The translations under genes were made by a program, and so were the position numbers. Shown one piece after another: positions 1,896 through 31,094 of a stretch of 32,000 nt of DNA. How positions within the stretch are numbered: position 1 is the stretch's first letter; every line of letters starts with the position of its first letter. Source of the stretch: Halobacteriales archaeon QS_4_66_20 (GTDB lineage Archaea > Halobacteriota > Halobacteria > Halobacteriales > Haloarculaceae); contig PXRK01000040.1 in assembly GCA_003021015.1 (NCBI GenBank), forward strand, positions 60,358 through 92,357. Direction: 5' to 3'. The notes under the pieces were generated by a model that did not search any database, was not told where the DNA came from, and was given only the letters and a program-made list of their open reading frames with translations.

Positions 1896-3587
1896 TCACC
1901 CGTCGCCAGTCAGCAGCGATTCCAGTTCGGCCGGTGAGTCGACGCGATCATCCTCGACGCCGTCGGTTACGACGCGCGCCTCACCGCGCGTCAGGTCCTG
2001 GGAGTCGGACCCGTCGTCGCTGCCGAGGGCGTGGCCGGCGGTGGCGGCGGCGTTGTGGTCGCTCGCCACGAGCGGCGCGACGACCGTCTCGTGGTCGGCC
2101 AAGCGGAGCGCGGCGCGGTGGAGGTCGCTGCCCGGCTCGGTCGCGACCTGGATGCAACGGGGCTCCTGCAGGCGGGCGGCGACCGTCGCGTAGCCCGCCA
2201 CCTCGACGCCCATCCGCTCGCCCGCGCCGGCGAACGCCTCGACGGCCCGGCGGGCCGCTCGTCGGTAGCGGTCGTCGCCGGTGAGCAGCGCCAGGTCGAG
2301 CAGCGCGTCGGCAGCCTCGACGGCCGAATCCAGCGGATAGAGTGGGCGGTCGAGGAGCCCGGGGCCCTCGGCAGGCCCGTCACAGAACGCCCCCTCGCCG
2401 GTCTGGAGCTGTTCGACTGTCCAGTCGGCGACGGCGACGACGGGCCCGGGTTCGCCCAGCACCTCCCAGGAGGTCGTGAGGCCGGCGAGCAGGCGGGCCT
2501 GGTCGAGCAACAGACCGGACTCGCCGCTATCGTCGCCGTCGCGGTAGTGGGTGACCTCGCCACCGTCGACGAGGTGCTCACAGACGTACTCGCGGGCCTG
2601 GCGGGCGTACCGCGTCGCGTCGGCGTCGTCGGTGTAGGCGACGTACCGCAGCAGGGCGTCGACGGCCAGCCCGTTGCGGTCCGCAAGGACGGTGTCGTCG
2701 ACGCTCGGCGGGTCGGCGTCCTCGCGGTCGGCGGGTTCGAGGGTGAAGTACGATTCGTCGCCGCCCTGGCTGGCGCCGACGGCGTCGCCGGTCCACAGCG
2801 TCGTGGTCAGGAACTCGACGCCGCGTTCGGCGGCCTCGCGGTACGAGTCCTCGCCGGTGTAGCGGTAGCCGTAGGCGAACGCCCGTACGAGGGCGGCGTT
2901 CTCGTCGGCGAGTTTCTCCCGGCGGGCGCCGCCCCAGTTTCGGTTGCGCGCGTAGCGGTAGAACCCGCCGTCGTAGGTGTCCAGCAGGTGGGTCTGGATG
3001 GCTTCCAGCGTCCGGGTGGCCTGGTCGGGCGCCCGGACGAGTGCGAATTCGATCGTACGAGGCAGCGGGAACTTGACGCCGGAGCCCCAGCCGCCGAACT
3101 CCTCGTCGAAGGTGCCCAAAAGCTGTTCGACCATGTGCTCCTCGATCCGGGCGTCGATGTCGCCCGCCGGCGTCGGGTCGTCCCGCAGTGCTCGGGGGAT
3201 CGACCCCGCCTCCTCCCCGTTGCTGTCCCACGTCTTGCGGACGCTGTCGAGGATGCCCCGGAAGCCGTCGACGCCGAGGTGGGTGGCACCGGTCAGCACT
3301 TTTCCGGAGGGTGTGAGAAAGACAGTCGAGGGAAACCCGCCCATGTTGTAGCGTTCGCGGACTCGGGGGTGGCGGTCGGCGTCGACGCGCACGGGAACGA
3401 AGCCGTCGTTGATGTTCGCGGCGATGCGCGGTTCGTCGTACGTGGTGGTGTCCATCTCCCGGCACTCCGCGGACCACGACGTGACAAGGGCGAGTAGCAC
3501 TGGTTTGGCCGCCCGGTCGGCGGCGTCGAAGGCCTTCTGGCCCCACTCGCGCCACTGGACTTTCGTCGCGTCCGCGCTCTCGGTCAT
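1896..3587 (-). CDS. Thioredoxin-domain / DUF255 (YyaL-like) protein
   Basis: It has a thioredoxin-like N-terminus (KPVLLALVTSWSAEC, FVPVRVDADRHPRVRERYN, GGFPSTVFL) followed by a long helical repeat region. The start is taken at MTESADATKVQW; the track start at 3623 lies in the MITE terminus. Confidence 0.75.
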   Translation of the reverse strand: MTESADATKVQWREWGQKAFDAADRAAKPVLLALVTSWSAECREMDTTTYDEPRIAANINDGFVPVRVDADRHPRVRERYNMGGFPSTVFLTPSGKVLTGATHLGVDGFRGILDSVRKTWDSNGEEAGSIPRALRDDPTPAGDIDARIEEHMVEQLLGTFDEEFGGWGSGVKFPLPRTIEFALVRAPDQATRTLEAIQTHLLDTYDGGFYRYARNRNWGGARREKLADENAALVRAFAYGYRYTGEDSYREAAERGVEFLTTTLWTGDAVGASQGGDESYFTLEPADREDADPPSVDDTVLADRNGLAVDALLRYVAYTDDADATRYARQAREYVCEHLVDGGEVTHYRDGDDSGESGLLLDQARLLAGLTTSWEVLGEPGPVVAVADWTVEQLQTGEGAFCDGPAEGPGLLDRPLYPLDSAVEAADALLDLALLTGDDRYRRAARRAVEAFAGAGERMGVEVAGYATVAARLQEPRCIQVATEPGSDLHRAALRLADHETVVAPLVASDHNAAATAGHALGSDDGSDSQDLTRGEARVVTDGVEDDRVDSPAELESLLTGDG

Positions 3588-3621
3588 ATCCGTAGTTGGT
3601 TTCTGGTAGTTACACCTCTTC

Positions 3622-3892
3622 ATACTGTCGGACGTGACTCTGTGGAATGGTCAGACACGCAAATCGGTGTATACAGTCAGACGTGATTCATACTGGTGGC
3701 TGTAATTCTTTTACTCGCCACTCTCTGCTACCTGAGGATACAGACCCTTTCCGCCTGGATTCTCAATTCGAGTTTTCACGTACTTACAGCCACCAGTATC
3801 AGTGAAGCTATGCCGTCCCAAATCCCGTTGTTCGGGGCATGACATAGCCGATGGACTGTCCTGGCACTGAACGGAGTCACGTCTGGCTGTAT
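3622..3892. mobile_element. Family-B MITE-like composite: solo left end (3622-3660) plus complete copy (3671-3892)
   Basis: The left ends are atactgtcggacgtgactctgtgg (3622) and atacagtcagacgtgattc (3671). The reverse complement of the right end at 3892 is atacagccagacgtgactcc. The first 45 nt match the left arm of the copy at 19514. Confidence 0.65.
3690..3799. mobile_element. Family-C 110-bp TIR element nested in the family-B copy
   Basis: There is a perfect 16-bp inverted repeat: atactggtggctgtaa (3690-3705) and ttacagccaccagtat (3784-3799). The interior is about 46% GC. It shares the ATAC..GTAT termini and size class of family A. Confidence 0.55.
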
Positions 3893-3913
3893 ATGCACAC
3901 AAAAAGCGGTGCG

Positions 3914-3919
3914 TTAAAA
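3914..3919 (+). promoter_or_regulatory. Candidate TATA box for the amidohydrolase gene
   Basis: gcgTTAAAAcac is centred about 27 nt upstream of the ATG at 3944. Confidence 0.3.
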
Positions 3920-3943
3920 CACTCGGAGGGCGAGACTGGAACT

Positions 3944-4960
3944 ATGCTTCTCGAGGGGACCATCCTCAGGGGGCGCTCGTTTCAGCCGATCGAGGGCCGG
4001 ATCGTCGTCGAGGACGGCCGGATCGAGGCGATCGAGGAGAGCGATGCGCGCAGCGACGACATTATTCTTCCGGCGTTCGTCAACGCCCACACCCACGTCG
4101 GGGATTCGATCGCGAAGGAGGCAGGCGAAGGGTTGACCCTCGAGGAACTCGTCGCGCCGCCGGACGGGCTCAAACACCGGCTGCTCGCGGAGGCCGATCG
4201 GTCGGAACTGGTCGACGCGATGGCCGAGACCCTCTCGTTCATGGAAGCTAACGGTACGGCAGCGTTTATCGAGTTCAGGGAGGGCGGCGTCGAGGGGGTC
4301 GAGGCCATCGAGGAGGCACTGCGCGGTGTCGACGTCGAATCGGTCGTCCTCGGCCGGGAATCGATCGAGGCGATGGAACGGAGCGACGGGTTCGGTGCGA
4401 GCGGCGCCAACGACGGCGAGTTCTCGCGGGAGCGTAACGCGACCGCTCGGGAGGGGAAGCTGTTCGGCATCCATGCCGGGGAGGTCGACAGCTCCGACAT
4501 CAATCCCGCGATGGATCTGGACCCGGACTTCCTCGTCCACATGGTCCACGCCGAGGAGCTCCACCTCGAACGGGTGGCAGACAGCAACATCCCGGTAGTG
4601 GTCTGTCCCCGGTCGAACGCAGTCACGGACGTGGGGCTGCCGCCGGTGAGCGACATGCTGGACGCGACGACGGTCGCGCTCGGGACGGACAACGTCATGC
4701 TCAACAGCCCGTCGATGTTCCGCGAGATGGCGTTCACCGCGAAGCTGACTGACGCCTCGACGGCCGACGTGCTCCGGATGGCGACGATCAACGGCGCGGA
4801 AATCGCCGGCCTGAACTGCGGGCTGATCGAGGAGGGCCGTGATGCACGGCTCGTCGTCCTCGACGGGACCTCGCCGAACCTCTCCGGCGCGAAAGATCCC
4901 TGCCGGGCGGTCGTCCGGCGGGCCGGCGTCGACGACATCAAGGACGTAATCAGGCCCTGA
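3944..4960 (+). CDS. Amidohydrolase-superfamily protein (chlorohydrolase/deaminase-like)
   Basis: It has the metal-binding motif PAFVNAHTHVGDS, then HAGE and ALGTDNVM. The start is taken at MLLEGTILRG downstream of the MITE. Confidence 0.8.
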   Translation: MLLEGTILRGRSFQPIEGRIVVEDGRIEAIEESDARSDDIILPAFVNAHTHVGDSIAKEAGEGLTLEELVAPPDGLKHRLLAEADRSELVDAMAETLSFMEANGTAAFIEFREGGVEGVEAIEEALRGVDVESVVLGRESIEAMERSDGFGASGANDGEFSRERNATAREGKLFGIHAGEVDSSDINPAMDLDPDFLVHMVHAEELHLERVADSNIPVVVCPRSNAVTDVGLPPVSDMLDATTVALGTDNVMLNSPSMFREMAFTAKLTDASTADVLRMATINGAEIAGLNCGLIEEGRDARLVVLDGTSPNLSGAKDPCRAVVRRAGVDDIKDVIRP

Positions 4961-5461: not shown

Positions 5462-6394
5462 TCAGGGGTCGGCGGGGCGGAGGTGCTCACAGTCGCCGGC
5501 AGTGACCTCCCTGGTGCCCTCAGCCGTCTCGACGACGAGGCTGCCGGGGAAGCGCACGTCGACGGCGTCGCCGACGATCTCCTCGCCCGGAGTTTCGACC
5601 CGGACACGCTGTCCCAGCGTCGAGGAGAGCTTCCGCCAGGCGGGCAGCACTTGCTGCAGATCGACCGTTAGCTCGTGAAACGCCGCGAGCAGGCTCTGGG
5701 TGAGTTCCCGCCTGTCGACGTCACCGACCTCCTCCCGGACTGTGGTGACTGGCCGGTCAGTCGGCAGATCGGCCGCGTCGACGTTCGCGTTGACGCCGAT
5801 GCCCACTACCAGCCAGGAGACGCGGTCGGCCTCCCCTTCCATCTCCGTGAGAATGCCTGCCAGTTTGCGATCCCCGACCAGTACGTCGTTGGGCCACTTG
5901 ATCGAGGCGTCAACGCCGGCCTCGCGGACGGCCCGGGTCGTCGCAACCGCGGCCGCGAGGGTGTAGGCGGGCGCCTGCGTGGGCGGAACGTCCGGTCTGC
6001 TCAGAATCGAGAGCCAGATCCCGCCCGACGGCGAGGACCAACCCCGATCGAGCCGCCCCCGACCGCCTGTCTGGGCGTCAGCGAGGACGACCACGTTCTC
6101 CCGGCCGTCGACCGCGAGGTCGCGCGCCCTGGCGTTCGTGCTGTCGATCGTCTCGTGGTACTCTACCTCGTACGGTGCGTCGAGCCCGAACTCCACTGCC
6201 GGCCCGCCGAACTCCGGGACTCCCGCCAGGTCGTACCCCGCCTCGGCGCTGTCGATCTCGAAGCCGGCCGCACGGAGCGCCTCGACGTGTTTCCAGACCG
6301 CCGCCCGGGAGACGCCGAGGTCCTCGGCGATCTGGGGGCCGCCGACAGGACCCGCCGCGATCCGGTCGAGGACGCGAGCGCGAGTCTCCTGCAT
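5462..6394 (-). CDS. birA: Biotin--[acetyl-CoA-carboxylase] ligase with N-terminal HTH
   Basis: The HTH is IAEDLGVSRAAVWKHVEALRAAGFEI. The ligase motifs are GGRGRLDRGWSSPSGG and KWPNDVL. It lies directly downstream of the biotin-dependent carboxylase genes. Confidence 0.9.
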   Translation of the reverse strand: MQETRARVLDRIAAGPVGGPQIAEDLGVSRAAVWKHVEALRAAGFEIDSAEAGYDLAGVPEFGGPAVEFGLDAPYEVEYHETIDSTNARARDLAVDGRENVVVLADAQTGGRGRLDRGWSSPSGGIWLSILSRPDVPPTQAPAYTLAAAVATTRAVREAGVDASIKWPNDVLVGDRKLAGILTEMEGEADRVSWLVVGIGVNANVDAADLPTDRPVTTVREEVGDVDRRELTQSLLAAFHELTVDLQQVLPAWRKLSSTLGQRVRVETPGEEIVGDAVDVRFPGSLVVETAEGTREVTAGDCEHLRPADP

Positions 6395-6442
6395 GACTCA
6401 CCCTCCGCAGGGGGGGACAACCAAGGTTTCGGCTGTGCCTGC

Positions 6443-8293
6443 TCACTCGATCACGAACAGCACGTCGCCCATGTCGACGCTGTCGTCCTCGGCGACCGTG
6501 ATCTCGGCGATCGTCCCGCCGTACTCCGCGACGACGTCGTTCTCCATCTTCATCGCCTCCAGCACGCAGAGCACGTCGCCGGCCTCCACCTCGTCGCCCT
6601 CCTCGACGGTGGTTTCGAGGATCGTACCCTGCATCTCGGCTGTGACCGTCTCACCGTCGGTCGCCGCCGCGCTGCCCTCGCTGGCCCCCTCGTCCGGGCC
6701 GGCGCGGCCGGGGCGGTTCGCGGAGCCGCCGGCGTCGATCTCCCCGACGTCGAGGGCGGGAGCGCCGTGCTCCTCCAGTTCGACCTCGAAGCGCCTGCCG
6801 TCGACCTCGACGGTGAACTCGCGGGTGGTCGACTCCTCGCCGTCCGCCTCCGCCGAGGTTTCAGTCCCCCACCGTTGTTGGGCCTCCTCGATCCGGCTGT
6901 CGGCGAGCTGTTCGTCGAGGTACTTCGTGGTGTGCTTGCCGTCGAGGAACGTCCCGTCGGTGAGCATCAGGCGGTGGAAGGGGATGATCGTCACGACGCC
7001 CTCGATGTCGTACTCCGAGAGCGCGCGCAGCGACCGGTCGATGCACTCCGCGCGGTCGCTGCCGTGGACGATCAGCTTCGCGATCATCGAGTCGTAGTCG
7101 GTGACGAGTTCGTCGCCCTGCCGGAGCGCGTCGTCGATCCGGACGCCGATGCCGCCCGGCGGATCGTACGTGTCCAGGACGCCGCCCGTCGCCGGCGCGA
7201 ACTCCTGGGCGGCGTTCTCCGCGTTGATCCGGAACTCCATCGCGTGACCCTCCAGGTCGACCGACTCCTGGGAGAAGCTGAGCTCCTCGCCCGCTGCGAC
7301 CCTGAGCTGCCAGTTCACGATGTCGACGCCCGTCAGCTCCTCGGTGACGGTGTGTTCGACCTGGATCCGCGTGTTGACCTCCAGGAAGTAGAAGTTCGTG
7401 TCGGATCCCAGCGGCTCGTCGGGATCCCGGCCGGGGTCCTCCTCGACGAGGAACTCCACGGTCCCGGCGTTCGTGTAGCCAGCGGCGTCGACACCGCGGC
7501 GGGCCGCCTCGCCGATCTCCTCGCGGAGGTCGTCGGACAGCGCCGGCGAGGGCCCTTCCTCGATCACCTTCTGGTGGCGCCGCTGCAGCGAGCAGTCACG
7601 CTCGCCGAGGTGCCGGACGTTGCCGTGGTGGTCCGCGAGGATCTGGATCTCGACGTGACGGGGGTGTTCGAGGTACCGCTCCAGGTACACCGAGTCGTTG
7701 TCGAAGTAAGCCTCGCCCTCCCGCTTCGCGCTCTCCAGTTCGTCCGCGGCCTGGCCGGCGTCCCGGACTACTTTCATGCCGCGGCCACCGCCGCCGCCTT
7801 CGGCTTTGATCGCCACGGGATAGCCGTGTTCGTCACCGAACGCCGTGACCTCCTCGGGGTCGGTGACGGGGTCCGTCGTGCCGGGAACGATCGGGACGTC
7901 GGCCTCCTGCATGATCTGGCGGGCTTGCGTCTTCTCGCCGAGCTGTTCCATGCCGTCGCTGTCGGGCCCGACCCAGGTCACGCCCTCTGTCGCCTCCACC
8001 TCGGCGGCGAAGTCGGCGTTCTCCGCGAGGAAGCCATAGCCCGGGTGGATCGCGTCTGCATCCGCCCGCTGGGCAGCGTCGATGATCGCGTCGTGGTCCA
8101 GGTACGAGTCGGCGGCCCGCGCGGGGCCGACGTTGTACGCTTCGTCGGCGTACCGGACGTGGCCGCCGTCGCTGTCGGCATCGCTGTAGACGGCGACGGT
8201 TTCGATGCCCATGTCGTGGCAGGCCCGCATCACCCGGACGGCGATCTCGCCGCGGTTCGCGACCAGTACCTTCTCGAACGGTTTCGCTGTCAT
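6443..8293 (-). CDS. pccA: Biotin carboxylase fused to biotin carboxyl carrier domain (acyl-CoA carboxylase alpha subunit)
   Basis: [18 protein letters not shown], the ATP-grasp [10 protein letters not shown], and a C-terminal biotinyl domain with EAMKMEN. The start at MTAKPFEKV forms an ATGA overlap with the upstream small gene. Confidence 0.9.
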
Positions 8294-10836: not shown

Positions 10837-11568
10837 ATGTCGAGGCCACGACTCTGCCTGCTGATGGCGTCGTACGACGCCGAGAACACCCGGCGCAATT
10901 TCCGCCGGGAGCTGGACGCGGACCTGGTCGAGTTCCACACGCCGGAGGGCGAACTCCCGCCGCCGGAGACGGCTGGGGCGTTCGAGGCGTTCGACGGCTG
11001 CGTCGTGACGGGGTCGCGGGCGTCGGTCTACTGGGAGGACAAGTGGATCGAGGACGTGGCCGAGTGGGTCGCCGAGGCTATCGCCGACGGCATGCCGTTC
11101 CTGGGTGTCTGCTGGGGCCACCAGCTGCTGGCCCACGTCCTCGGGGGCGACGTCGAGGACATGGGCGAGTACGAGATTGGCTACCGGACCGTGTCACAGG
11201 TCGGCGACTCGCGGCTCTTTGCCGGCCTCGACGACGAGTTCACCGCCTTCGAGACGCACTCGGACTCCGTCGCGGCGCTTCCCGAGGGGGCGGAGTTGAT
11301 CGCCGAAAACGAGTACGGGATCCAGGGGTTCCAAGAGGGGGACGTGTTCGGCGTCCAGTTCCACCCCGAGTACGACCAGCGGACGGCAGCGACGGTCACC
11401 CGGGGCAAGGAGTCGCTCTCACAGGAGCGCATTGACGCGGTTCTGGAGGGGATCACAGACGAGGCCTACGCCGAAGCCTGCGAGACGAAACAGCTGTTCG
11501 ACAACTTCGTCGGGCTGGTGTGCGAGCGGCGGGCAGCGGCGCTCGGCGCCCGTCCAACCCAGGACTGA
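10837..11568 (+). CDS. Class I glutamine amidotransferase (GMP synthase-like GATase1 domain)
   Basis: It has the nucleophile elbow GVCWGHQLL and the catalytic motif FGVQFHPE. The stop TGA (11566-11568) overlaps the first base of a family-B element. Confidence 0.85.
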   Translation: MSRPRLCLLMASYDAENTRRNFRRELDADLVEFHTPEGELPPPETAGAFEAFDGCVVTGSRASVYWEDKWIEDVAEWVAEAIADGMPFLGVCWGHQLLAHVLGGDVEDMGEYEIGYRTVSQVGDSRLFAGLDDEFTAFETHSDSVAALPEGAELIAENEYGIQGFQEGDVFGVQFHPEYDQRTAATVTRGKESLSQERIDAVLEGITDEAYAEACETKQLFDNFVGLVCERRAAALGARPTQD

Positions 11569-11760
11569 TACTGCCGGACGTGATTCCGTTACTACCCGGA
11601 TAGCACTCAGCATCTGATAGTGATTATTGTGAGTCGTTCCGGTATCGACCGCGGTACTGCGTGCGGTCGACCCGGTAAACAGTCACAATAATCACTATGA
11701 GACAACCGAAAACCCCAGTCCGAGCATCACTCGGAGTAACATAGTCACGTCCGGCAGTAT
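11568..11760. mobile_element. Family-B MITE-like element (193 bp) carrying a nested family-A element
   Basis: The left end is atactgccggacgtgattccgttact. The reverse complement of the right end is atactgccggacgtgactatgttact, which matches at 16/16 terminal nt and extends to about 30. Confidence 0.7.
11617..11698. mobile_element. Family-A short variant (82 bp), nested
   Basis: The TIRs are atagtgattattgtgag and (reverse complement) atagtgattattgtgac. The interior is itself a hairpin: ccggtatcgaccgc...gcggtcgacccgg. Confidence 0.7.
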
Positions 11761-15063: not shown

Positions 15064-15089
15064 GCCCGACGGTTGGATTCCAGGGACTA

Positions 15090-15200
15090 ATAGTGATTGT
15101 TGTGATTATTTTCGGCACCATGTCGCAATAGCGGCGATTTCACGGCCCGAAACTGGCGTCTGAGGAATACCCGGCGGTAAAGAGTCACAACAATCACTAT
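15090..15200. mobile_element. Family-A MITE-like element, full 111-bp copy (forward orientation)
   Basis: It runs atagtgattgttgtga...tcacaacaatcactat. It differs at 7 of 111 positions from the copy at 28360-28470. No ORF. Confidence 0.75.
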
Positions 15201-15215
15201 CAGAGGGTGTAGCTG

Positions 15216-15714: not shown

Positions 15715-15899
15715 CGAGCGGCGCCTTTCTGGCGTCGATGTGGCGGCGCCGGGCAGAACCGCTGGCGCTCCCCCTGCTGGACGTCGCCGTCCGCGACGAT
15801 GGCCCTAGAATCCCGGAGCACGAACAGGCAGTCCTCCTGGAAGGCGAGGAGACGCCGCTGAGCCACGGGAGCGGCCTCGGGCTCTGGCTCGTCTACTGA
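15711..15899 (+). pseudogene. Histidine-kinase remnant (part of the HATPase_c domain only)
   Basis: LDVAVRDDGPRIPEHEQAVLLEGEETPLSHGSGLGLWLVY contains degenerate G1 and intact G2 boxes. There is no HisKA or N box. The track start is a TTG. The C-terminus is cut by the family-A terminus, which supplies the TGA. Confidence 0.7.
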
Positions 15900-15988
15900 T
15901 ACTGATTGTTGTGACTCGTTACCTCGGGTATTCGCCAGACGCCAGTTTCGGGACGTGAAACCGCCGCTACTGCGATGTCGTGCCGAAA
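15899..15988. mobile_element. Family-A element, reverse orientation, one TIR missing
   Basis: atactgattgttgtgactcgttacctcgggtattcgccagacgccagtttcggg... aligns with the reverse complement of 28360-28470. It diverges after ...gtgccgaaa into a local inverted duplication (gtgaaaccgccgcta / tagcggcggttcgtcac). Confidence 0.65.
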
Positions 15989-16141
15989 GTAAATAGCGGC
16001 GGTTCGTCACGAAAACTCTGTATAGCTAGGCTCCACCACTAAGAGTGGGGAGCTACAAGAAGACGTTAGCATGAGCGCACCGGCCCACGACCGAACCGGC
16101 GACGACTCCGTCGTTCGGGCCACTGTCCGCCGAGCCAGCAT

Positions 16142-17224
16142 ATGATCGAGGGGAACGACTGTCGGGACGCCGTCTCGATCGATCGCTACCCGGGGCCAGT
16201 GTGCAGCTACACCTGCCGGAACGGGGAACCGGTGATCGAGCGGGCAAACGAGGCCTTCGAGGGGGCGTTCGGGGCGGTCGCGGCGGGCGACGCGCTCGCG
16301 CCCGTGTTCGAGGAGTACGGGATCGAACCGATCGACGGCCCGGCGCCGCTGTCAGCGATGATGAACGAGGATCGCACCCAGCAGGTCCGCGTCGAATCGC
16401 CACCGGAGACGGGGGCGGGGGCGAACAGGTACCTGGCGCAGGTGATCGCACCGGACGGCGAGCGACCGGGGCACCTGCTGTTGACTGACGCCAGCGCCGG
16501 CGACGGCGACTTCGGCGTCGACAGGGTCGCGAGCGTGATCAGTCACGACCTCCGCAACCCGCTCGACGTCGCCAAGGCGCGACTCAGGGCCGGACGGGAG
16601 CTGGACTCCGGGGAGGATCACCTCGAACACGTCGAACAGGCCCACGACCGCATGGAGCGGATTATCCAGGACGTGCTGACGCTCGCGCGCGGCGAGGAAG
16701 TGATCGAACCGGAGGGGACGGTCGACCTCGGGGCAGTCGCCGAGGACGCCTGGGAGACCGTCGAGACGAACGGCGCGTCGCTGTCGGTCACCGATTCGTT
16801 GCCGTCGACAGTCGCGGACCGCGACCGGGTCAAGCGGCTGTTCGAGAACCTGTTTCGCAACGCCGTGGAACACGGTTCCACGAGCCGGCAGCCTCCAGCT
16901 GACGACGCCGTCGAGCACAGCTCCACGGGCAGTGGGCCCTCTGCCGACAACGACGACGAACACGGCGGCGACGAAATCACGATCACGGTCGGCCGCATCG
17001 AAGACGGGACGACGGGGTTCTACGTCGCGGACGACGGACGGGGCATCCCGGCGGACCGCCGGGAGGCCGTCTTCAGGCCGGGGTACAGTTCCGACGAGCA
17101 CGGCACGGGGCTCGGTCTCGCTATCGTCCGGCGGATCGCGGACGTCCACGGGTGGTCGGTCTCGGTGACGGACGCCGCGGGCGGCGGCGCACGGTTCGAG
17201 TTCGTCGGCGTCGAACCTGCCTGA
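16142..17224 (+). CDS. Sensor histidine kinase (PAS-like N-terminus, HisKA, HATPase_c)
   Basis: The boxes are H box SVISHDLRNPL, N box FENLFRNAVEHG, G1 VADDGRGIP and G2 GTGLGLAIV. The stop TGA overlaps the family-A terminus. Confidence 0.9.
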   Translation: MIEGNDCRDAVSIDRYPGPVCSYTCRNGEPVIERANEAFEGAFGAVAAGDALAPVFEEYGIEPIDGPAPLSAMMNEDRTQQVRVESPPETGAGANRYLAQVIAPDGERPGHLLLTDASAGDGDFGVDRVASVISHDLRNPLDVAKARLRAGRELDSGEDHLEHVEQAHDRMERIIQDVLTLARGEEVIEPEGTVDLGAVAEDAWETVETNGASLSVTDSLPSTVADRDRVKRLFENLFRNAVEHGSTSRQPPADDAVEHSSTGSGPSADNDDEHGGDEITITVGRIEDGTTGFYVADDGRGIPADRREAVFRPGYSSDEHGTGLGLAIVRRIADVHGWSVSVTDAAGGGARFEFVGVEPA

Positions 17225-17334
17225 TAGTGATTGTTGCGACTCTTTCCCGCCGGGGAGTCACAATTCGTGGGCTTCAGCCCGCGAACCAACCGTTCACGCG
17301 TCGTGGTGCCGAAAATAATCGCAACAATCACTAT
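17224..17334. mobile_element. Family-A element, 111 bp, variant interior (reverse orientation)
   Basis: The outer ~33 and ~31 nt match family A, with the TIR atagtgattgttgCga in both arms. The central ~47 nt is unrelated to the other copies. Confidence 0.7.
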
Positions 17335-17397
17335 GAGAGCGAGGGTGAAGGAGAGTCAGACAGATGCTTACGTCCCACACTCGAATCGGGAGCAAAG

Positions 17398-19466: not shown

Positions 19467-19513
19467 ACTGTACTCTACGCCGGTCTTGCGGTGGAGGTGT
19501 CTTAACACCTCCT

Positions 19514-19699
19514 ATACACCCGGACGTGACTCTGTTAGATGTCAGGACACGATATCCACGAGTATCGACCCTGACAGTCCCGAGTTGTGTCGAGATGACT
19601 GAGGTGAATCACGTCTCTCCTCGCGGGGGTCGGTTGCGAACCGCTCGGCAGCCCGAGTTGTGTCGAGATGACTGAGGTGAATCACGTCCGGGTGTCTAT
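19514..19699. mobile_element. Family-B MITE-like element (186 bp) with duplicated right arm
   Basis: The left end is atacacccggacgtgactctgtt. The reverse complement of the right end is atagacacccggacgtgattc. An internal 37-bp perfect direct repeat lies at 19579-19615 and 19652-19688. Confidence 0.65.
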
Positions 19700-19743
19700 C
19701 GTGGTTCATCGCCCCGGGCTCCGGCGGGACAGGCTTGAAGGTC

Positions 19744-19805
19744 GGTCGGCAACAGTTAAACATCGGCCCTGCTTTCTGGGAGGTGTGAGCCGGATTCTCA
19801 TCGGG
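19744..19805 (+). repeat. 62-bp direct repeat, copy 1 (duplicate of the PiT promoter and first 7 codons)
   Basis: It matches 20798-20859 at 60 of 62 positions. It contains TTAAAC (19756-19761) and GTG (19785), the latter opening only a 20-codon ORF. Confidence 0.85.
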
Positions 19806-19828
19806 TTGACCAGCGCCTCGACGTCGGC

Positions 19829-20714: not shown

Positions 20715-20797
20715 GTGTTCGGGGTGGTGGCCGGGCGACTTCAACGTTCAGTTCGGCGAGAACTGGTTAGAGGTGGAGGCGTTGGTGCTGCTGGGAC

Positions 20798-20859
20798 GGT
20801 CGGCAACAGTTAAACATCGGCCACGCTTTCTGGGAGGTGTGAGCCAGATTCTCATCGGG
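20798..20859 (+). repeat. 62-bp direct repeat, copy 2 (functional PiT promoter and start)
   Basis: TTAAAC at 20810-20815 is centred about 27 nt upstream of the GTG start at 20839. Confidence 0.85.
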
Positions 20860-22014
20860 CTGGGAGTTCTCGTGGTCGTCTTCGTCGGCTACAACATCGG
20901 CGGGTCGACGACCGGCCCGGCGTTCGGGCCAGCCGTCGGTTCGGCCGTCATCTCGAAGGTGGCGGCCGCGGCGCTGATGGCGGTGTTTTTCTTCGTCGGT
21001 GCGATCACGCTCGGCCGCAGGGTCGTCGAGACGCTCGGCTCGGATCTCGTCACGTCGACCGCCATCTTCACGCTCGAAGCCAACGTCGTCGTGCTCTTTT
21101 TCATCGGCGGCGCGCTGTTCATCGGCAACTACGCCGGCGTCCCGGCGTCGACGTCGATGACGGCCGTCGGTGCGATCGCCGGGCTCGCGCTGTCCGCCGA
21201 CGCGCTCAACTGGACGGAGATGAGCCAGATCATGGCCTGGTGGATCGTCGCCCCGGTGATCGCCTTCTGGGTGTCCGGCGTCATCGGCCGGTACTTCTAC
21301 CCGCGACTCAACCGCCGCGTCGCGCTCGTCCAGAGCGAGGGGCCGTTGATCGAACTCGACCGCTCGGCTGCGGTGCCGCGGCCGGTCCCGGGCCCGAACA
21401 CGACGCGCCGGGAGTTCGCCGGCACCGTGATCGTGGTCGCGATCGGCTGTCTCATGGCGTTCTCCTCAGGCACCTCCAACATCGCCAACGCGATCGCACC
21501 GCTGGTCGGGAGCGACACCATCGGGATGAACGAGGGGATTGTCCTCGGGTCGGCCGCGGTCGCCATCGGCGCGTTCACGATCGGCCGCAAGACGCTCGAC
21601 ACACTCGGGAACGACCTGACTGCACTGCCGCTGACGGCGTCGATCGTCGTTGCGACCGTCAGCGCGACGATCGTGACGCTCCTCTCGTCGATCGGCATCC
21701 CCGCGAGTTTCGTCATCGTCGCCACGATGAGCATCATCGGCCTGGGCTGGGGGCGCGCGACGCGGACGACGACGGTCGAATCGATGCGCGACGGCGAACC
21801 GACCGCGGTCTCGCCGGCCTCCCTCGCCGCCGACGAGGGCGGCGAGGAACTGCCCGATATCGGCGAGGAGAACCCCGAGGAGCTCCCCTCCGCGGGCGAA
21901 CTGTTCAACCCTTCCACCACCGTTCGGGTCGTGCTGATGCAGAACGTCGTCCCCGTGATCGCCACCGTCGCGGCCTATCTGACGTTCACCTTCGTGCCGG
22001 TGTTCGGCCTGTGA
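20839..22014 (+). CDS. PiT-family inorganic phosphate transporter
   Basis: It is a multi-TM protein with the paired PiT signatures GYNIGGSTTGPAFGPAVGS and SGTSNIANAIAPLVGS. The GTG start gives VSQILIGLGVLVV. Confidence 0.85.
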   Translation: MSQILIGLGVLVVVFVGYNIGGSTTGPAFGPAVGSAVISKVAAAALMAVFFFVGAITLGRRVVETLGSDLVTSTAIFTLEANVVVLFFIGGALFIGNYAGVPASTSMTAVGAIAGLALSADALNWTEMSQIMAWWIVAPVIAFWVSGVIGRYFYPRLNRRVALVQSEGPLIELDRSAAVPRPVPGPNTTRREFAGTVIVVAIGCLMAFSSGTSNIANAIAPLVGSDTIGMNEGIVLGSAAVAIGAFTIGRKTLDTLGNDLTALPLTASIVVATVSATIVTLLSSIGIPASFVIVATMSIIGLGWGRATRTTTVESMRDGEPTAVSPASLAADEGGEELPDIGEENPEELPSAGELFNPSTTVRVVLMQNVVPVIATVAAYLTFTFVPVFGL

Positions 22015-22075: not shown

Positions 22076-23512
22076 ATGGTCACGCTCGCCTTCGACGGTC
22101 GAACCGGTGCGAGTGGGGACATGCTGCTGGGTGCGCTGCTGGCCGCCGGCGCCGACCGGTCGGCGCTGGACGTCCTGGAGCGAGAGCTAGGTGTCCGGTA
22201 CGATGTCGCCGAGACGACCCGGTGTGGCATCACCGCGACGCGGGTCGAGGTGGTGCTGGCAGACGAATCCACCAGTCACGATCGTTCCCACGACCAGTCC
22301 GACGGGGGACATTCTCAGGATCGTTCCCACGACCAGTCTGACGGGGGTCATTCTCAGGATCATTCCCACGACCAGTCTGACGGGGGTCGTTCTCAGGATC
22401 ATTCCCACGATCACTCTGACGAAGTACATTCCCACGATCACTCTGACGAAGTACATTCCCACGAAGGAACCGAGGGACACGCTCACGAACACACACACGC
22501 TGAGGGACAGGGGCCGGAACGCAGCTATGGCGAAGTCGTCGACCTCGTGGAGTCGATGGGGCTGACAGGGACGGTGGAGGACACGGCCCTGGCTATCTTC
22601 GAATTACTGGGGGAGGCAGAGGCGAGCGTCCACGGAACGGACCTCGAATCGACGCAGTTCCACGAGGTCGGCGCCGACGACGCGATCGCGGACGTGGTGG
22701 GCGTCGCGCTGTTGCTCGCGGACCTCGACCCCGACAGGGTCGTTACCACGCCGCTCGCGGCCGGGGGCGGAGAGGTGTCGATGAGTCACGGCATCTACCC
22801 GGTCCCGACGCCTGCCGTGGTCGAACTCGCCGAACGCGCCGACTGGTCGCTGCGGGGCGGACCCGTCGAAACGGAGCTCCTGACGCCGACGGGCGCCGCG
22901 GTGCTCGCCCACGTCGCGGCGGGCGTCGAGCGGCTTCCGTCCCTCAATATCGAGCAGTCGGGGTACGGCGCCGGGGCAAAATCCTTCGACCGGCAGCCGA
23001 ACGTCCTCCGGGCGGTCGTCGGCGAAGAGGCGGAGCGACTCAGACAGGAGCCGATCACGGTGCTGGAGACGAACCTCGACGATGCCAGCCCGGAGATCGT
23101 CGGCAGCCTGCAGGAGACGCTCGTCGACGCTGGCGCGCTCGACGTCACCGTGGTGCCGACGACGATGAAGAAGTCACGGCCGGGCCATCTCCTGAAGGTG
23201 ATCGTTCCGCCGGCCGACGCGGCGCAGGTCGCGCGGGCGCTGGCGGCCGAGACGGGAACCCTCGGCGTGCGCGAACACGGCAGCGGGCACCGCTTCGTCG
23301 CCGACCGCTCCGTCGAATCCGTCACCGTCGACGTCGAGGGTCGCTCCTGCGAACTGGACGTCAAGATCGGACGGTTCGGCGGCGATCCGGGCGAGGTGTT
23401 CGACGTCAGCGCGGAGTACGACGACGCGCTCCGGGTCGCCGGCGAGACCGACCTCCCCGTCCGGGAGGTTTGTCGGCGTGCAGAAAACCGTGCTCGCTCT
23501 CGATTTCTCTGA
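22076..23512 (+). CDS. larC: LarC-family nickel insertion protein (DUF111) with expanded His/Asp-rich tract
   Basis: MVTLAFDGRTGASGDMLLGALL, FHEVGADDAIADVVG and LLTPTGAAVLA, plus a C-terminal domain GTLGVRE. The His-rich insert spans residues ~66-145. Confidence 0.85.
   Translation: MVTLAFDGRTGASGDMLLGALLAAGADRSALDVLERELGVRYDVAETTRCGITATRVEVVLADESTSHDRSHDQSDGGHSQDRSHDQSDGGHSQDHSHDQSDGGRSQDHSHDHSDEVHSHDHSDEVHSHEGTEGHAHEHTHAEGQGPERSYGEVVDLVESMGLTGTVEDTALAIFELLGEAEASVHGTDLESTQFHEVGADDAIADVVGVALLLADLDPDRVVTTPLAAGGGEVSMSHGIYPVPTPAVVELAERADWSLRGGPVETELLTPTGAAVLAHVAAGVERLPSLNIEQSGYGAGAKSFDRQPNVLRAVVGEEAERLRQEPITVLETNLDDASPEIVGSLQETLVDAGALDVTVVPTTMKKSRPGHLLKVIVPPADAAQVARALAAETGTLGVREHGSGHRFVADRSVESVTVDVEGRSCELDVKIGRFGGDPGEVFDVSAEYDDALRVAGETDLPVREVCRRAENRARSRFL
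22280..22462 (+). repeat. Coding tandem repeats: 3 x 39 bp followed by 2 x 27 bp
   Basis: The 39-bp units are at 22280-22318, 22319-22357 and 22358-22396 (gatcRttcccacgaccagtcYgacggggg...). The 27-bp units are at 22409-22435 and 22436-22462 (gatcactctgacgaagtacattcccac, identical). Confidence 0.9.
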
Positions 23513-27616: not shown

Positions 27617-28249
27617 CTACCCGGCGACTCCCGCTCGCGGCGCCGCGGGGTCGACGTTCAGCACGCGCATCCGACCCGCGAGCAGGCCGAACAGGAGGCC
27701 AGTAAAGTGTGCGATCAGTGCGACGCCGGGGCTGGCGGTCAGCACCGTGACCGCGGCTGCCACGATGGTGAACACCAGAATCGAGAGCCAGAACGGGATC
27801 TGGACGAAGCCCGCGACGCCGGTCGAGAGGCGGTTGCTGGCGAGCAGGTAGCCCAGGAGTGCGAACACCGCGCCGCTGGCGCCCAGCACGCCCGCCGTGG
27901 CGTCGGCGCCGATGACGGGGAACCCCGCCAGCGCGTCGCTGATGACGATCTGCGAGACGCCCGCCAGCGCCCCGCTGACGATGAAAAACAGGTGAAATCG
28001 GGTGCGGGTTGTCGCCCTCGCGACGGGCCAGCCGAACAGCACGAGGGCGATTGCGTTCGAGACCAGATGTCCGATACCCCCGTGAGCGTAGACGCTGGTC
28101 ACGACCGTCCACGGGTTCTCGGTGATCGGCGGCGAAAGGATGAACAGCGCACCCAGGAGGTCAGCGAGCGCAGTCACGACCTGTGCGACGTAGACGAGGA
28201 TGAACAGCAGGAGGACTTCGAGTATCGGGCTCCCCGATCGGTCAACCAT
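27617..28249 (-). CDS. Rhomboid-family intramembrane serine protease
   Basis: It has HGGIGHLVSNAIAL and the catalytic GASGAVFALLGY, with multiple TM segments. Start at MVDRSGSPILE; the longer track ORF runs into the MITE nest. Confidence 0.85.
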   Translation of the reverse strand: MVDRSGSPILEVLLLFILVYVAQVVTALADLLGALFILSPPITENPWTVVTSVYAHGGIGHLVSNAIALVLFGWPVARATTRTRFHLFFIVSGALAGVSQIVISDALAGFPVIGADATAGVLGASGAVFALLGYLLASNRLSTGVAGFVQIPFWLSILVFTIVAAAVTVLTASPGVALIAHFTGLLFGLLAGRMRVLNVDPAAPRAGVAG

Positions 28250-28295
28250 ACGACTAGTAGGGCTGATTCGTTCATTATACTGTCGGATGTGACTC

Positions 28296-28358
28296 TGTGG
28301 ATTATGACTGTTTACCGGGTCGACCACACGACTGCGTGCGGTCGATTCCGGAACGACG
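28296..28358. repeat. Family-A short variant, degenerate copy lacking intact TIRs
   Basis: gactgtttaccgggtcgacc...ggtcgattccggaacgac matches the arms of 11617-11698 in inverted orientation (37 of 38 arm positions). Confidence 0.6.
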
Positions 28359-28359
28359 C

Positions 28360-28470
28360 ATAGTGATTGTTGTGAGTATTTTCGGCACCACATCGCAGTA
28401 GCGGCGGTTTCACGGCCCGAAACTGGCGTCTGGCGAATACCCGGCGGTAAAGAGTCACAACAATCACTAT
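28360..28470. mobile_element. Family-A MITE-like element, full 111-bp copy (forward orientation), nested
   Basis: It runs atagtgattgttgtgagt...gagtcacaacaatcactat. A further partial TIR, atagtgattgt, follows at 28472-28482. Confidence 0.75.
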
Positions 28471-28578
28471 CATAGTGATTGTATCACCATGACGTGTCAC
28501 AGAGTCACGTCCGGGTGTATATGAGACCGAAACCAACTTTGATTAGTCCCGGTGTCGAACTCACAGAGAGGGAAGACG

Positions 28579-29718
28579 ATGGATATTGCTGACATAGCTA
28601 CTCCGGAGTACGTGGAGATCGACGCCGACAAGCGCCTCTCGAAAGTTCGATCGATCTTCGAGCGCGAGAACCCCAAGGGGATTGTCGTCACGGAGGACGG
28701 CGAGTATGCGGGCATCATCAACCAGAAACAGCTGCTGCAGTCACATATCCAGGACGATGCGAAAGTCCGCGGGATGATCCGCTCGGCGCCGCGGGTCAAC
28801 CGCCGCGACGACGTCCGCGAGGTCGCTCGCGTGCTGGTCGAGAGCGGAGCGAAGCTGGCTCCCGTCTTCGAGGGCGATAATCTCTGGGGCGTCGTGACCG
28901 AGGACGCCATCTTGGAGGCGGTGCTAGAGAACCTCGACGCACTCGACGTCTCGGAGATCTACACCGACGACATCGTGACCGTCACGACGGACACGAGCAT
29001 CGGGACAGTGATCAACCGCCTGCGCGAGCACGGCGTCTCCCGGCTGCCGGTGCTCGACGACAACGGCCAGCTAACCGGCATGGTCACCACCCACGACATC
29101 GCCGACTTCGCCGTCCGTAACATGGAGCGCCAGCAGAAAGGCGACCGCTCGGGCGACATCGACCGGATTCTCGACATCCGCGTATACGACATCATGAACA
29201 GCCCGGTCGAGACGACCACGCCGACCGAATCGGTCCGGGACGCCGTCACGCGGATGCTCGACAACGACTACGCTGGACTCGTGGTCACACCCGAGGACGA
29301 CGGGACCGTCGTGGGCATCATCACGAAGACGGACGTGATGCGCGCGCTGACGTTCACAGAGGAGGAGCACCTGGACGTCCAGATCACGAACATCACGCTG
29401 CTGGACGCGATCACGCGCGACGAGATCCGCCAGCGCATCGAGGGCGTCTCCGAAAAGTACCAGAAGATGCACGTTCAGCACGCCCACGTCCGCTTTCACA
29501 AGCACAAGGAACGGCTGCGGGGCACGCCACTGATCCAGTGTCAGATCCGGCTGCGGACGAACCGCGGGCAGGTCGCCGGCTCCGGCGAGGGGTACGGCGC
29601 CGACGCCGCGTTCGGGGTGGCGATCGACAAACTCGAACGGCGCGTGCTCGAACTCAAGGGCGTCCAGGCCGACGAAGAGTACCGCGGCCAGCTGCTCCGG
29701 AAGCTGGGCGAACTCTGA
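28579..29718 (+). CDS. Four-CBS-domain protein fused to an HPF/RaiA-like (S30AE) C-terminal domain
   Basis: Four CBS-like repeats occupy residues ~12-265 of the track ORF. The C-terminal part is LDVQITNI..DEIRQRIEGVSEKY..AHVRFHKHKE..QCQIRLRTNRGQVAGSGEGYGADAAFGVAIDKLERRVLELKG. It aligns by eye, element by element, with E. coli HPF as I remember it (QLNITG..., ...AAIDGLIDKLARQLTKHK). Start at MDIADIATPEY. Confidence 0.8.
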   Translation: MDIADIATPEYVEIDADKRLSKVRSIFERENPKGIVVTEDGEYAGIINQKQLLQSHIQDDAKVRGMIRSAPRVNRRDDVREVARVLVESGAKLAPVFEGDNLWGVVTEDAILEAVLENLDALDVSEIYTDDIVTVTTDTSIGTVINRLREHGVSRLPVLDDNGQLTGMVTTHDIADFAVRNMERQQKGDRSGDIDRILDIRVYDIMNSPVETTTPTESVRDAVTRMLDNDYAGLVVTPEDDGTVVGIITKTDVMRALTFTEEEHLDVQITNITLLDAITRDEIRQRIEGVSEKYQKMHVQHAHVRFHKHKERLRGTPLIQCQIRLRTNRGQVAGSGEGYGADAAFGVAIDKLERRVLELKGVQADEEYRGQLLRKLGEL

Positions 29719-29750: not shown

Positions 29751-31094
29751 TCAGACGCCAGCTGCTTTTTCTGCCTCGACCTGGACGATGTAGGAGCGAT
29801 CGTCGGCGTACTTTGCCGCCGTTTCGAGCGCCTTCTGGGTTCCGATCTGGTTGAGCGCCCAGGCCGCACTCGCGCGAACGCTGTCGTCCTCGTCCTCGTC
29901 GAGCACGTCACCCAGCGGTTCGATGGCGCGGGTGTCGCCGATCATCCCCAGCGCGCGGGCTGCGGCGGACCGGATCGACGGGTCGTCGGCTGCGAGCCGC
30001 TGGGCGACCGGCTCCGTCGACTCCTCGCTCCCGATGGCGCCCAGCGCCCGGAGCGAGACCTGTTCGAGCCCGACGTCGCCGCCCCCGAGGAAGTCGGCCA
30101 GCGTGTCGCAGGCCCGTTCGTCGGCGATCCGACCGAGAATCCGTACTGGCTGCTTGTTGCGCCGCTGGGCCAGCGCGTGGACGGGCTCGTAGGCCGCCGT
30201 CGGCGCCTCGTGCTCGATGCTGTCGAGGATGTTGTCCTCCATGAAATCGGAGTCGAGTTTCTCCATCGCCGACAGGATCGGCTCGAACTCGCCGGCCTTC
30301 TCGTAGAGCTTGATCGCGGACCACTCTGGCGGGAAGTCCTTCCGGGTTTCGGGGTCGAGCACGTCGTAAAACCCCTCGCGGCGGAGCTGTTCGCGCACCT
30401 CCAGGTCGCTCCAGATCTGCGCGTCGTCCAGGTCCGAGGAGAGGTTCTCCGTGGCGACCAGCAACGAGTCGATCGTTTCGGCGTCGTCGTCGGGGTCCAG
30501 CGGCGTCTCGTTCACCGCATCCTTCACGCTCGCGAGCGCCATCGCGGCGTCGGCGGGCGTCTCCGCGTCGTAGGCGAACGTCTCGTCGAGTGTGTCGCCG
30601 ACGCGTTCGACGTACTTCCCGACTGCGTCGACGACCGAGTCGGCGCCCTCTTTCGTCCATTCGCTGTCCTCGATCGTCGAGACGGCGTCGTCCAGCGCGT
30701 CGGTGACGTCCTCGCGGTACGGGCCGCGCTGGTCCTCGACATCGGCCCGGAGGTCGTCGAGGCGGTCCTCGAACTCGTCGCGGGGGTTCGCCTCCTCCGA
30801 TTCTTCCGCCTCGTCCTCGTCCTCCTCGGCTTCGTCCGCCTCGTCCTCCTCGGCTTCGTCCGCCTCGTCCTCGATTTCGACGGCGAAGACGGCGTCCTCG
30901 AGGTCGGCCTCGATCTCGTCGAGCGTGGTCTCGACTCTGTCGAGGTCGTCCTCGGTCTCCGCCCGGTCGACGGCGTCGGCGGCCTCGTCGAGGCGCTCGG
31001 CGAACGGCTCGGGGTCGGCCGGTTCGGGTGGCTCGCTGCTCCCCTCGGCTGCCTCCGTCTTCTCCGCGTCTGGTTCCTCGTCCCCGTTGCTCAT
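29751..31094 (-). CDS. HEAT-repeat (PBS-lyase-type) protein with very acidic N-terminal half
   Basis: The C-terminal repeats are LRALGAIGSEESTEPVAQRLAADDPSIRSAAARALGMIGDTRAIEPLGDVLDEDEDDSVRASAAWALNQIG. The N-terminus is Asp/Glu-rich, with a 24-bp tandem duplication encoding EDEADEAE. Confidence 0.8.
   Translation of the reverse strand: MSNGDEEPDAEKTEAAEGSSEPPEPADPEPFAERLDEAADAVDRAETEDDLDRVETTLDEIEADLEDAVFAVEIEDEADEAEEDEADEAEEDEDEAEESEEANPRDEFEDRLDDLRADVEDQRGPYREDVTDALDDAVSTIEDSEWTKEGADSVVDAVGKYVERVGDTLDETFAYDAETPADAAMALASVKDAVNETPLDPDDDAETIDSLLVATENLSSDLDDAQIWSDLEVREQLRREGFYDVLDPETRKDFPPEWSAIKLYEKAGEFEPILSAMEKLDSDFMEDNILDSIEHEAPTAAYEPVHALAQRRNKQPVRILGRIADERACDTLADFLGGGDVGLEQVSLRALGAIGSEESTEPVAQRLAADDPSIRSAAARALGMIGDTRAIEPLGDVLDEDEDDSVRASAAWALNQIGTQKALETAAKYADDRSYIVQVEAEKAAGV

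Follow-up and report, generated by a model that had tools for sequence, protein, structure and literature searches.

A haloarchaeal CBS-tetrad protein with a C-terminal HPF/RaiA domain, very probably a ribosome hibernation factor of the HibA/AHA family

The stretch of DNA considered here (the window) comprises 32,000 nucleotides of contig PXRK01000040.1 from Halobacteriales archaeon QS_4_66_20 and consists of high-GC, haloarchaeal DNA. At 28579..29718 it carries a gene whose product joins four CBS domains to a C-terminal domain of the HPF/RaiA type. We conclude that this product is very probably an archaeal ribosome hibernation factor of the HibA/AHA family; its orthologue in Haloferax volcanii is most likely AHA (HVO_2384, UniProt D4GWN2). 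The gene and the parts of its product are as follows.

28579..29718, plus strand: gene of hibA/AHA type, 379 amino acids plus stop, acidic product of 42,502 Da and pI 4.99
28579..29370, plus strand: N-terminal CBS tetrad made of two Bateman modules, residues 1-264 (four Pfam CBS matches, model)
29122..29175, plus strand: long loop in CBS3, residues 182-199, MERQQKGDRSGDIDRILD, gapless against P. abyssi HibA 190-207
29371..29661, plus strand: HPF/RaiA domain, residues 265-361 (PF02482, AlphaFold2 model, Foldseek)
29662..29715, plus strand: C-terminal tail, residues 362-379, ending ...ADEEYRGQLLRKLGEL, with an extra helix at 366-378 in the full-length AlphaFold2 model

The open reading frame (ORF) containing this gene runs uninterrupted over 28552..29718 on the plus strand from a GTG, from which it would encode 388 amino acids. 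We take ATG 28579, giving 379 amino acids, to be the true start because the closest homologues are 379-380 amino acids long and begin MDIADI..., because both relatives in the PDB align from residues 1-3, and because the context of the ATG is kept in two related metagenome-assembled genomes (MAGs). The GTG at 28552 was rejected on these same three grounds. An earlier note on this DNA counted residues from the GTG; its HPF-like stretch, 273-372 of the 388-residue frame, corresponds to residues 264-363 from the ATG.

Profile and structure searches, which the earlier note had set as the test of its claim that four CBS domains are fused to an HPF/RaiA-like domain, both returned a significant HPF/S30AE match. 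In Pfam, the 379-residue protein gave four CBS stretches at E 1.3e-43 and, over residues 280-360, a match to the HPF/RaiA family Ribosomal_S30AE (PF02482), in which 81 residues cover 70 profile positions with a score of 25.0 bits (E 3.3e-5; gathering cut-off 23.7 bits). Matches to CBS-containing families in NCBIfam all lay below threshold. The full-length AlphaFold2 model (predicted local distance difference test score, pLDDT, 79.3) contained four CBS units, each beta-alpha-beta-beta-alpha, and a C-terminal unit made of strand 266-270 (LDVQITNI), helix 280-293 (IRQRIEGVSEKY), strand 299-313 (AHVRFHK), strand 316-327 (QCQIRL), strand 330-339 (GQVAGSGEG) and helix 341-356 (AFGVAIDKLERRVLELKG). 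The sequences in brackets are the elements by which the earlier note had recognised an HPF domain, and each of them falls on a predicted secondary-structure element of the AlphaFold models.

When the full-length model was submitted to Foldseek, CBS-tetrad proteins dominated the output (SriA/B on the Methanosarcina ribosome, AMPK-gamma, MJ1225 and Dri); neither 9SR9 nor 9L96, the two PDB entries discussed below, was retrieved from the structure library, which extended to 8 April 2026. Because this output consisted mostly of CBS tetrads, the C-terminal domain was modelled separately. The AlphaFold2 model of residues 265-379 alone (pLDDT 84.5) had the topology strand-helix-strand-strand-strand-helix, and its top 24 Foldseek matches in the PDB were all bacterial or plastid YfiA/RaiA/HPF/pY proteins, the best with an E value of 1.1e-4. 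The top match aligned over 99 columns with a target template-modelling (TM) score of 0.72 and a root-mean-square deviation (rmsd) of 2.8 A. Targets were 83-96% covered, and the best matches had TM scores of 0.70-0.75 and rmsd values of 2.5-2.8 A. The fusion of a CBS tetrad to a domain of HPF fold is thus directly apparent in the window protein.

Within the tetrad, G-h-h-T/S-x-x-D motifs are found at GVVTEDA 104-110, GMVTTHD 167-173 and GIITKTD 246-252, and that of CBS1 is degenerate (GIINQKQ). Among 40 orthologues the ribose-binding G-h-h-T-x-x-D motifs of CBS3 (GMVTTHD) and CBS4 (GIITKTD) are invariant, including T170, D173, G246, T249, T251 and D252. The long CBS3 loop is likewise conserved, with G188, R190, G192, R196, L198 and D199 invariant in the same set, and it is flexible in the model (pLDDT <50 at 188-194). 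Both insertions specific to the archaeal HPF domain are present, TLL at 273-275 and RLRGTPL at 312-318 between strands 2 and 3; they were mapped by alignment to the P. abyssi HibA segments removed in the published deletion construct, 283SAL285 and 324KFRGVHL330. The C-terminal tail is almost invariant across orthologues.

Homology to two proteins in the PDB extends over the whole length of the protein. Two strong full-length matches came from a phmmer search of PDB sequences: chain a of 9L96 (406 amino acids, entered as 'CBS domain-containing protein') with E 1.2e-70, and chain H of 9SR9 (392 amino acids, entered as 'Dehydrogenase') with E 2.1e-50, the latter aligned over residues 3-376 against 6-388. 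When the search was made with a profile built on the C-terminal domain by itself, 9L96_a and 9SR9_H were again retrieved. Entries 9SR9-9SRF and 9T7H are the cryo-electron microscopy structures of HibA from Pyrococcus abyssi (PMC13324472, Nat Commun 2026; preprint October 2025).

HibA consists of a CBS module (residues 1-269) and an HPF/RaiA-like domain (270-392), and it inhibits translation. Its C-terminal domain occupies the 30S subunit's mRNA/tRNA channel, and its CBS module takes up three positions on the 50S subunit, in one of which loop 190-207 enters the peptidyl-transferase centre (PTC). The isolated CBS module binds AMP (12 uM) in preference to ADP, and ADP in preference to ATP, and AMP or ATP barely alters the ribosome-bound states of the P. 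abyssi protein (all PMC13324472). The CBS-tetrad plus HPF architecture of HibA recurs in Haloferax volcanii AHA (PMC12934967, February 2026), which, in lysates, was observed on the 70S ribosome with its loop 3 in the PTC and with two molecules of AMP at CBS3/CBS4; these AMP sites are the counterparts of sites 3 and 4 in AMPK-gamma. In stationary phase, the AHA knockout lost viability, ribosomal proteins and the capacity for regrowth (PMC12934967). The ribosome-silencing role that the earlier note had proposed is therefore established for members of the family, P. abyssi HibA and H. volcanii AHA; its statement that such factors had not been characterised in haloarchaea is out of date with the publication of AHA. 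The description of the protein as nucleotide-gated goes further than the evidence: adenine-nucleotide binding has been shown in the family, but gating is a hypothesis for AHA and has that standing even for the characterised HibA/AHA members.

By homology with these published proteins, the window protein would be expected to bind ribosomes, to inhibit translation and to bind adenine nucleotides. In such a scheme its C-terminal HPF/RaiA domain (265-361) would sit in the 30S subunit's mRNA/tRNA channel, at the decoding centre, and the CBS3 loop (182-199) would extend into the PTC. A single protein would span both subunits in this way, stop translation and hold the 70S ribosome together, protecting it from degradation during stationary phase or stress. 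At the CBS3/CBS4 interface the protein would bind AMP, ADP or ATP, possibly adjusting the affinity for the ribosome.

When one genome from each species was scanned, 314 relatives were obtained. The best 80 are full-length, 70-100% identical to the window protein, and belong to Halovenus, Halosimplex, Haloarcula, Natronomonas, Halorientalis, Salinibaculum and halite MAGs; across the Haloarculaceae, protein identity is 70-79%. The MAG 'Halobacteriales archaeon SW_10_66_29' encodes an identical protein (100%), and all 25 nucleotide differences between the two genes are synonymous. Against five orthologues, the ratio of nonsynonymous to synonymous substitution rates (dN/dS) was 0.06-0.18. The gene is thus conserved and under purifying selection. 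Halobacteria had already been included in both published surveys of the family, one of which found it in 47% of archaeal genomes, whereas the other counted 3,160 homologues from 2,723 species (PMC13324472, PMC12934967).

Haloarchaeal proteins of this architecture fall into two forms. Those of type 1 are 379-380 amino acids long, 42.1-42.6 kDa, with pI 4.7-5.0, and are encoded on the chromosome in complete genomes. Type-2 proteins (~43.2 kDa, pI 4.6) share 38-39% identity with the window protein; their CBS3 loop carries a Gly/Ser-rich extension of 21-25 residues, and their tail is longer and ends W-rich. Judged by its sequence, the window protein is of type 1, the chromosomal form, whose short loop and tail resemble those of P. 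abyssi HibA. Chain a of 9L96, 9L98, 9L9C and 9L9V was identified by tblastn against plasmids as WP_004060604.1, a type-2 protein of Haloferax mediterranei megaplasmid pHM500. A protein search with the C-terminal half of 9L96_a gave only fragments and no exact match, and full-text literature searches for the four entries found no paper describing them; a candidate paper in Genome Biology proved not to be their source. The two H. mediterranei copies are located as follows.

pHM500, 6001-7221 of the stretch compared (L084): first paralogue
pHM100, 3001-4209 of the stretch compared (L085): second paralogue, WP_004060464.1

Near-full-length long-loop copies occur on ~47 haloarchaeal megaplasmid records. 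In Salinibaculum (CP147838.1) a type-1 copy at 0.82 Mb is accompanied by a type-2 copy at 3.556 Mb (L081, 1056-3711), which is split into a 173-residue N-terminal ORF and a 236-residue C-terminal ORF around a 388-residue transposase-like ORF on the reverse strand; this copy is probably a pseudogene disrupted by an insertion sequence. Many of the short 'CBS+RaiA' entries in the protein database may likewise be fragments, or gene calls that were truncated. The split between a short-loop chromosomal form and a long-loop megaplasmid form may merit a closer look.

The assignment to HVO_2384 depends on which of these forms AHA belongs to. HVO_2384 is acetylated at K311 and K313 (PMC12607858), positions that coincide with the KEK at 311-313 of the 380-residue type-1 orthologues, and its reported mass of 42,521 Da and pI of 4.87 agree with type 1 but disagree with type 2. 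This motif, the mass and pI, and the chromosomal location of type 1 point indirectly to type 1 for HVO_2384, and the window protein is probably its orthologue. The same considerations bear on the best of the alternatives, namely that the window protein is a functionally diverged paralogue whose targets, or the conditions in which it acts, are different. Several paralogues with four CBS domains and an HPF domain coexist in haloarchaea, as the Salinibaculum and H. mediterranei pairs and the megaplasmid copies attest, and the placement of HVO_2384 is indirect. However, the window protein belongs with the chromosomal form of 379-380 residues and short loop, its loop length and tail are those of P. 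abyssi HibA, and acetylation sites, mass, pI and replicon put HVO_2384 in that same form. We therefore regard this alternative as improbable, and even a paralogue would retain every feature of the family.

A second alternative, that the protein is a CBS-tetrad regulator of a non-ribosomal target, such as an HhpR-like transcription regulator or an AMPK-gamma-like enzyme regulator, and that its C-terminus merely looks like HPF, appears highly improbable. CBS tetrads do have many roles, Foldseek shows a resemblance of the tetrad to AMPK-gamma, an inactive variant of the Pat2 acetyltransferase co-purified with HVO_2384 (PMC12607858), and there is a weak match to HhpR (CM-3; NCBIfam NF053603). That match scored 62.2 bits, however, far under the cut-off of 520, and neither HhpR nor the Sri proteins possess an HPF domain, whereas the C-terminal domain of the window protein matches HPF in both sequence profile and structure and is collinear with HibA as seen on the ribosome.

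Several points weigh against assignment of the window protein to the HibA/AHA family as the orthologue of AHA. The Pfam HPF score exceeds its threshold by just 1.3 bits, and the NCBI annotation of most close relatives names CBS alone, because the Pfam match is marginal; JGI names close relatives 'CBS domain-containing protein/ribosome-associated translation inhibitor RaiA'. Function is assigned by homology, the host being an uncultured Halobacteriales MAG, and in the P. abyssi reconstitution the effects of nucleotides on ribosome binding were minimal (PMC13324472). Orthology to HVO_2384 is indirect, drawn from acetylation sites, mass, pI and replicon. Finally, the equivalents of K311 and K313 in the window protein are K310 and R312 (HKHKER, residues 307-312, 29497-29514), where most 380-residue orthologues have K-E-K, with an acetylatable K313. 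The Arg at this site may remove one layer of Pat2-type regulation in the window lineage.

The DNA upstream of the gene was described in the earlier note as that of a miniature inverted-repeat transposable element (MITE). This applies to most of the intergenic region, which holds a repeat with terminal inverted repeats, and not to the part next to the gene, which is unique and conserved. The features are as follows.

28277..28525, no strand assigned: nested MITE-like repeat between the two divergent genes (repeat families D5, D6, D8, D9, D13, I2, I3, I5, I25)
28277-28314 and 28490-28525: inverted ends of the outer element
28355-28475: inner element of 121 nt with ends ATAGTGATTGTTGTGA / TCACAACAATCACTAT
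28526..28578, plus strand: conserved non-repeat segment GAGACCGAAACCAACTTTGATTAGTCC..., probably the core promoter with a short leader

By their terminal inverted repeats, two repeat families can be distinguished in the window, ATAGTGATTGTTGTGA...TCACAACAATCACTAT and ATACTGYCGGAYGTGA...TCACGTCCGGNNGTAT, and at two sites the former is nested within the latter. Other copies of the outer element lie near 3622-3892 and 11568-11760, with a solo end at 19509-19551. The inner element is 92% identical to 15085-15205; 17221-17337 and 11613-11702 hold further copies of it, and 15896-15992 a partial one. The inner end motif matched 9 times against 0 expected and the outer motif 7 times against 0.85 expected; repeat density is high for a 32-kb window.

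The otherwise near-identical SW_10_66_29 MAG has the outer element and lacks the inner one (L001, ~2300-2400), which therefore represents a recent insertion/deletion polymorphism. Such filled and empty sites imply recent mobility or deletion of the inner element; a target-site duplication could not be resolved at this element in the comparison of the window with SW_10_66_29. The 53 nt at 28526-28578 are identical in SW_10_66_29 and nearly fully conserved, with a few substitutions, in a second relative with 90% protein identity, in which the DNA further upstream is unrelated. Since this proximal segment is conserved and free of repeats, the core promoter appears intact; CGAAAC and TTTGATTA may be its B recognition element (BRE)/TATA-like sequences. 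It is unlikely that the insertion of the inner element, 104 nt upstream of the ATG within an older element abutting the promoter, alters the expression of the hibernation gene or of the divergent rhomboid gene, though if it did, closely related halite strains would differ in entering or leaving dormancy. That the gene is decaying or silent, with its expression disturbed by insertions in a nested repeat that ends 54 nt before the ATG and whose inner part is strain-specific, is scarcely credible given the intact frame, the exclusively synonymous differences from the SW_10_66_29 copy, the low dN/dS values and the conserved 53 nt before the ATG.

The gene is monocistronic, in agreement with the earlier note, which had called it standalone. 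Both neighbours are on the opposite strand, a rhomboid protease gene at 27617..28252 (minus) and a HEAT-repeat protein gene at 29751..31094 (minus), and no conserved operon partner was seen among 80 related loci, where the HEAT-repeat neighbour recurs in 9 and the rhomboid gene in 2. Pfam annotation of 20 other genes of the window revealed none linked to translation or hibernation. The longest rhomboid ORF, 27617-28393 (minus, 258 amino acids), runs ~47 codons into the MITE-like element, and the more plausible start is at 28252, giving 211 amino acids that fully match Rhomboid in Pfam. The HEAT/PBS-lyase-repeat protein contains, in its N-terminal half, an acidic low-complexity repeat (EEDEADEAEE...) at 30780-30900, visible in the DNA as a 9/15-nt periodicity. 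Elsewhere in the window, a tandem repeat with a period of 39 nt and ~5 decaying copies occupies 22276-22470, at the 5' end of a LarC-like nickel-insertion ORF (PF01969; 22076-23512). An exact 37-nt direct repeat has copies 73 nt apart within 19579-19688, and a 69-nt repeat, 93% identical, lies at 19740-19808 and 20794-20862, 1054 nt apart, flanking the region of a DUF7097 gene.

The HibA/AHA family extends HPF-type ribosome hibernation over Bacteria and Archaea and ties it to energy sensing of the AMPK-gamma kind, and dormancy with ribosome preservation is central to the survival of organisms dwelling in halite. The locus is useful for annotation, as the NCBI label is still 'CBS domain-containing protein' and Pfam detection of the HPF domain is marginal. 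A claim of novelty fails, because the family has been named, resolved on the ribosome, tested genetically, including in a haloarchaeon, and surveyed phylogenetically; the window protein is an ordinary member of it, one more orthologue that brings no new biology.

Among known systems, AMPK gamma shares the four-CBS adenine-nucleotide sensor fold (Foldseek E ~1e-18) and differs in being a kinase regulator of 15-17% identity that has no HPF domain. Dri of Pyrobaculum and SriA-D / ARC-A,P of Methanosarcinales are archaeal hibernation factors that act on ribosomes and have only CBS tetrads, one or two of them. In Foldseek the window tetrad matched SriA/B chain 9znf_4 with E 1e-21 and Dri with E 4e-16, and PDB sequence matches to Sri chains (E 1e-14 to 1e-17) were confined to the tetrad. 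Dri, too, inserts a loop into the PTC. Unlike the window protein, Dri and Sri/ARC have no HPF domain; Sri/ARC bind in pairs to the small subunit, whereas in Dri the tetrad is rotated by ~180 degrees. The distribution of Dri/Sri/ARC is largely exclusive with that of HibA/AHA in both surveys (PMC13324472, PMC12934967).

Bacterial HPF/RaiA proteins (YfiA, protein Y; PF02482) share the fold of the C-terminal domain and, according to the published homologues, the 30S site. Their identity to the window domain is only 12-26%, and the archaeal domain adds the two insertions and the extra C-terminal helix. In bacteria the HPF domain is N-terminal, in short proteins of ~95-115 residues or long ones of ~180, standing alone or with a C-terminal dimerisation domain and never behind an N-terminal CBS tetrad, whereas in the window protein it follows a tetrad of 264 residues. 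The H. mediterranei pHM500 protein (9L96_a) has the full architecture and is the best PDB sequence match, but is a megaplasmid-encoded type-2 paralogue of 406 amino acids with 38% identity. P. abyssi HibA (UniProt Q9UYR4) is collinear with the window protein and shares the length of the PTC loop, both HPF insertions and the C-terminal helix and tail; the two differ in overall sequence (31% identity), in the residues of the PTC loop, and in surface chemistry, that of a hyperthermophile as against that of a halophile. Probably the closest is AHA (HVO_2384), likewise a haloarchaeal, acidic, chromosomally encoded protein of ~42.5 kDa with an N-terminal CBS tetrad, a CBS3 loop and a C-terminal HPF domain. 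It comes from another family of Halobacteria, the window protein being Haloarculaceae-like with Arg at the K313-equivalent position, and a type-1 orthologue from the Natrialbaceae is 64% identical to the window protein.

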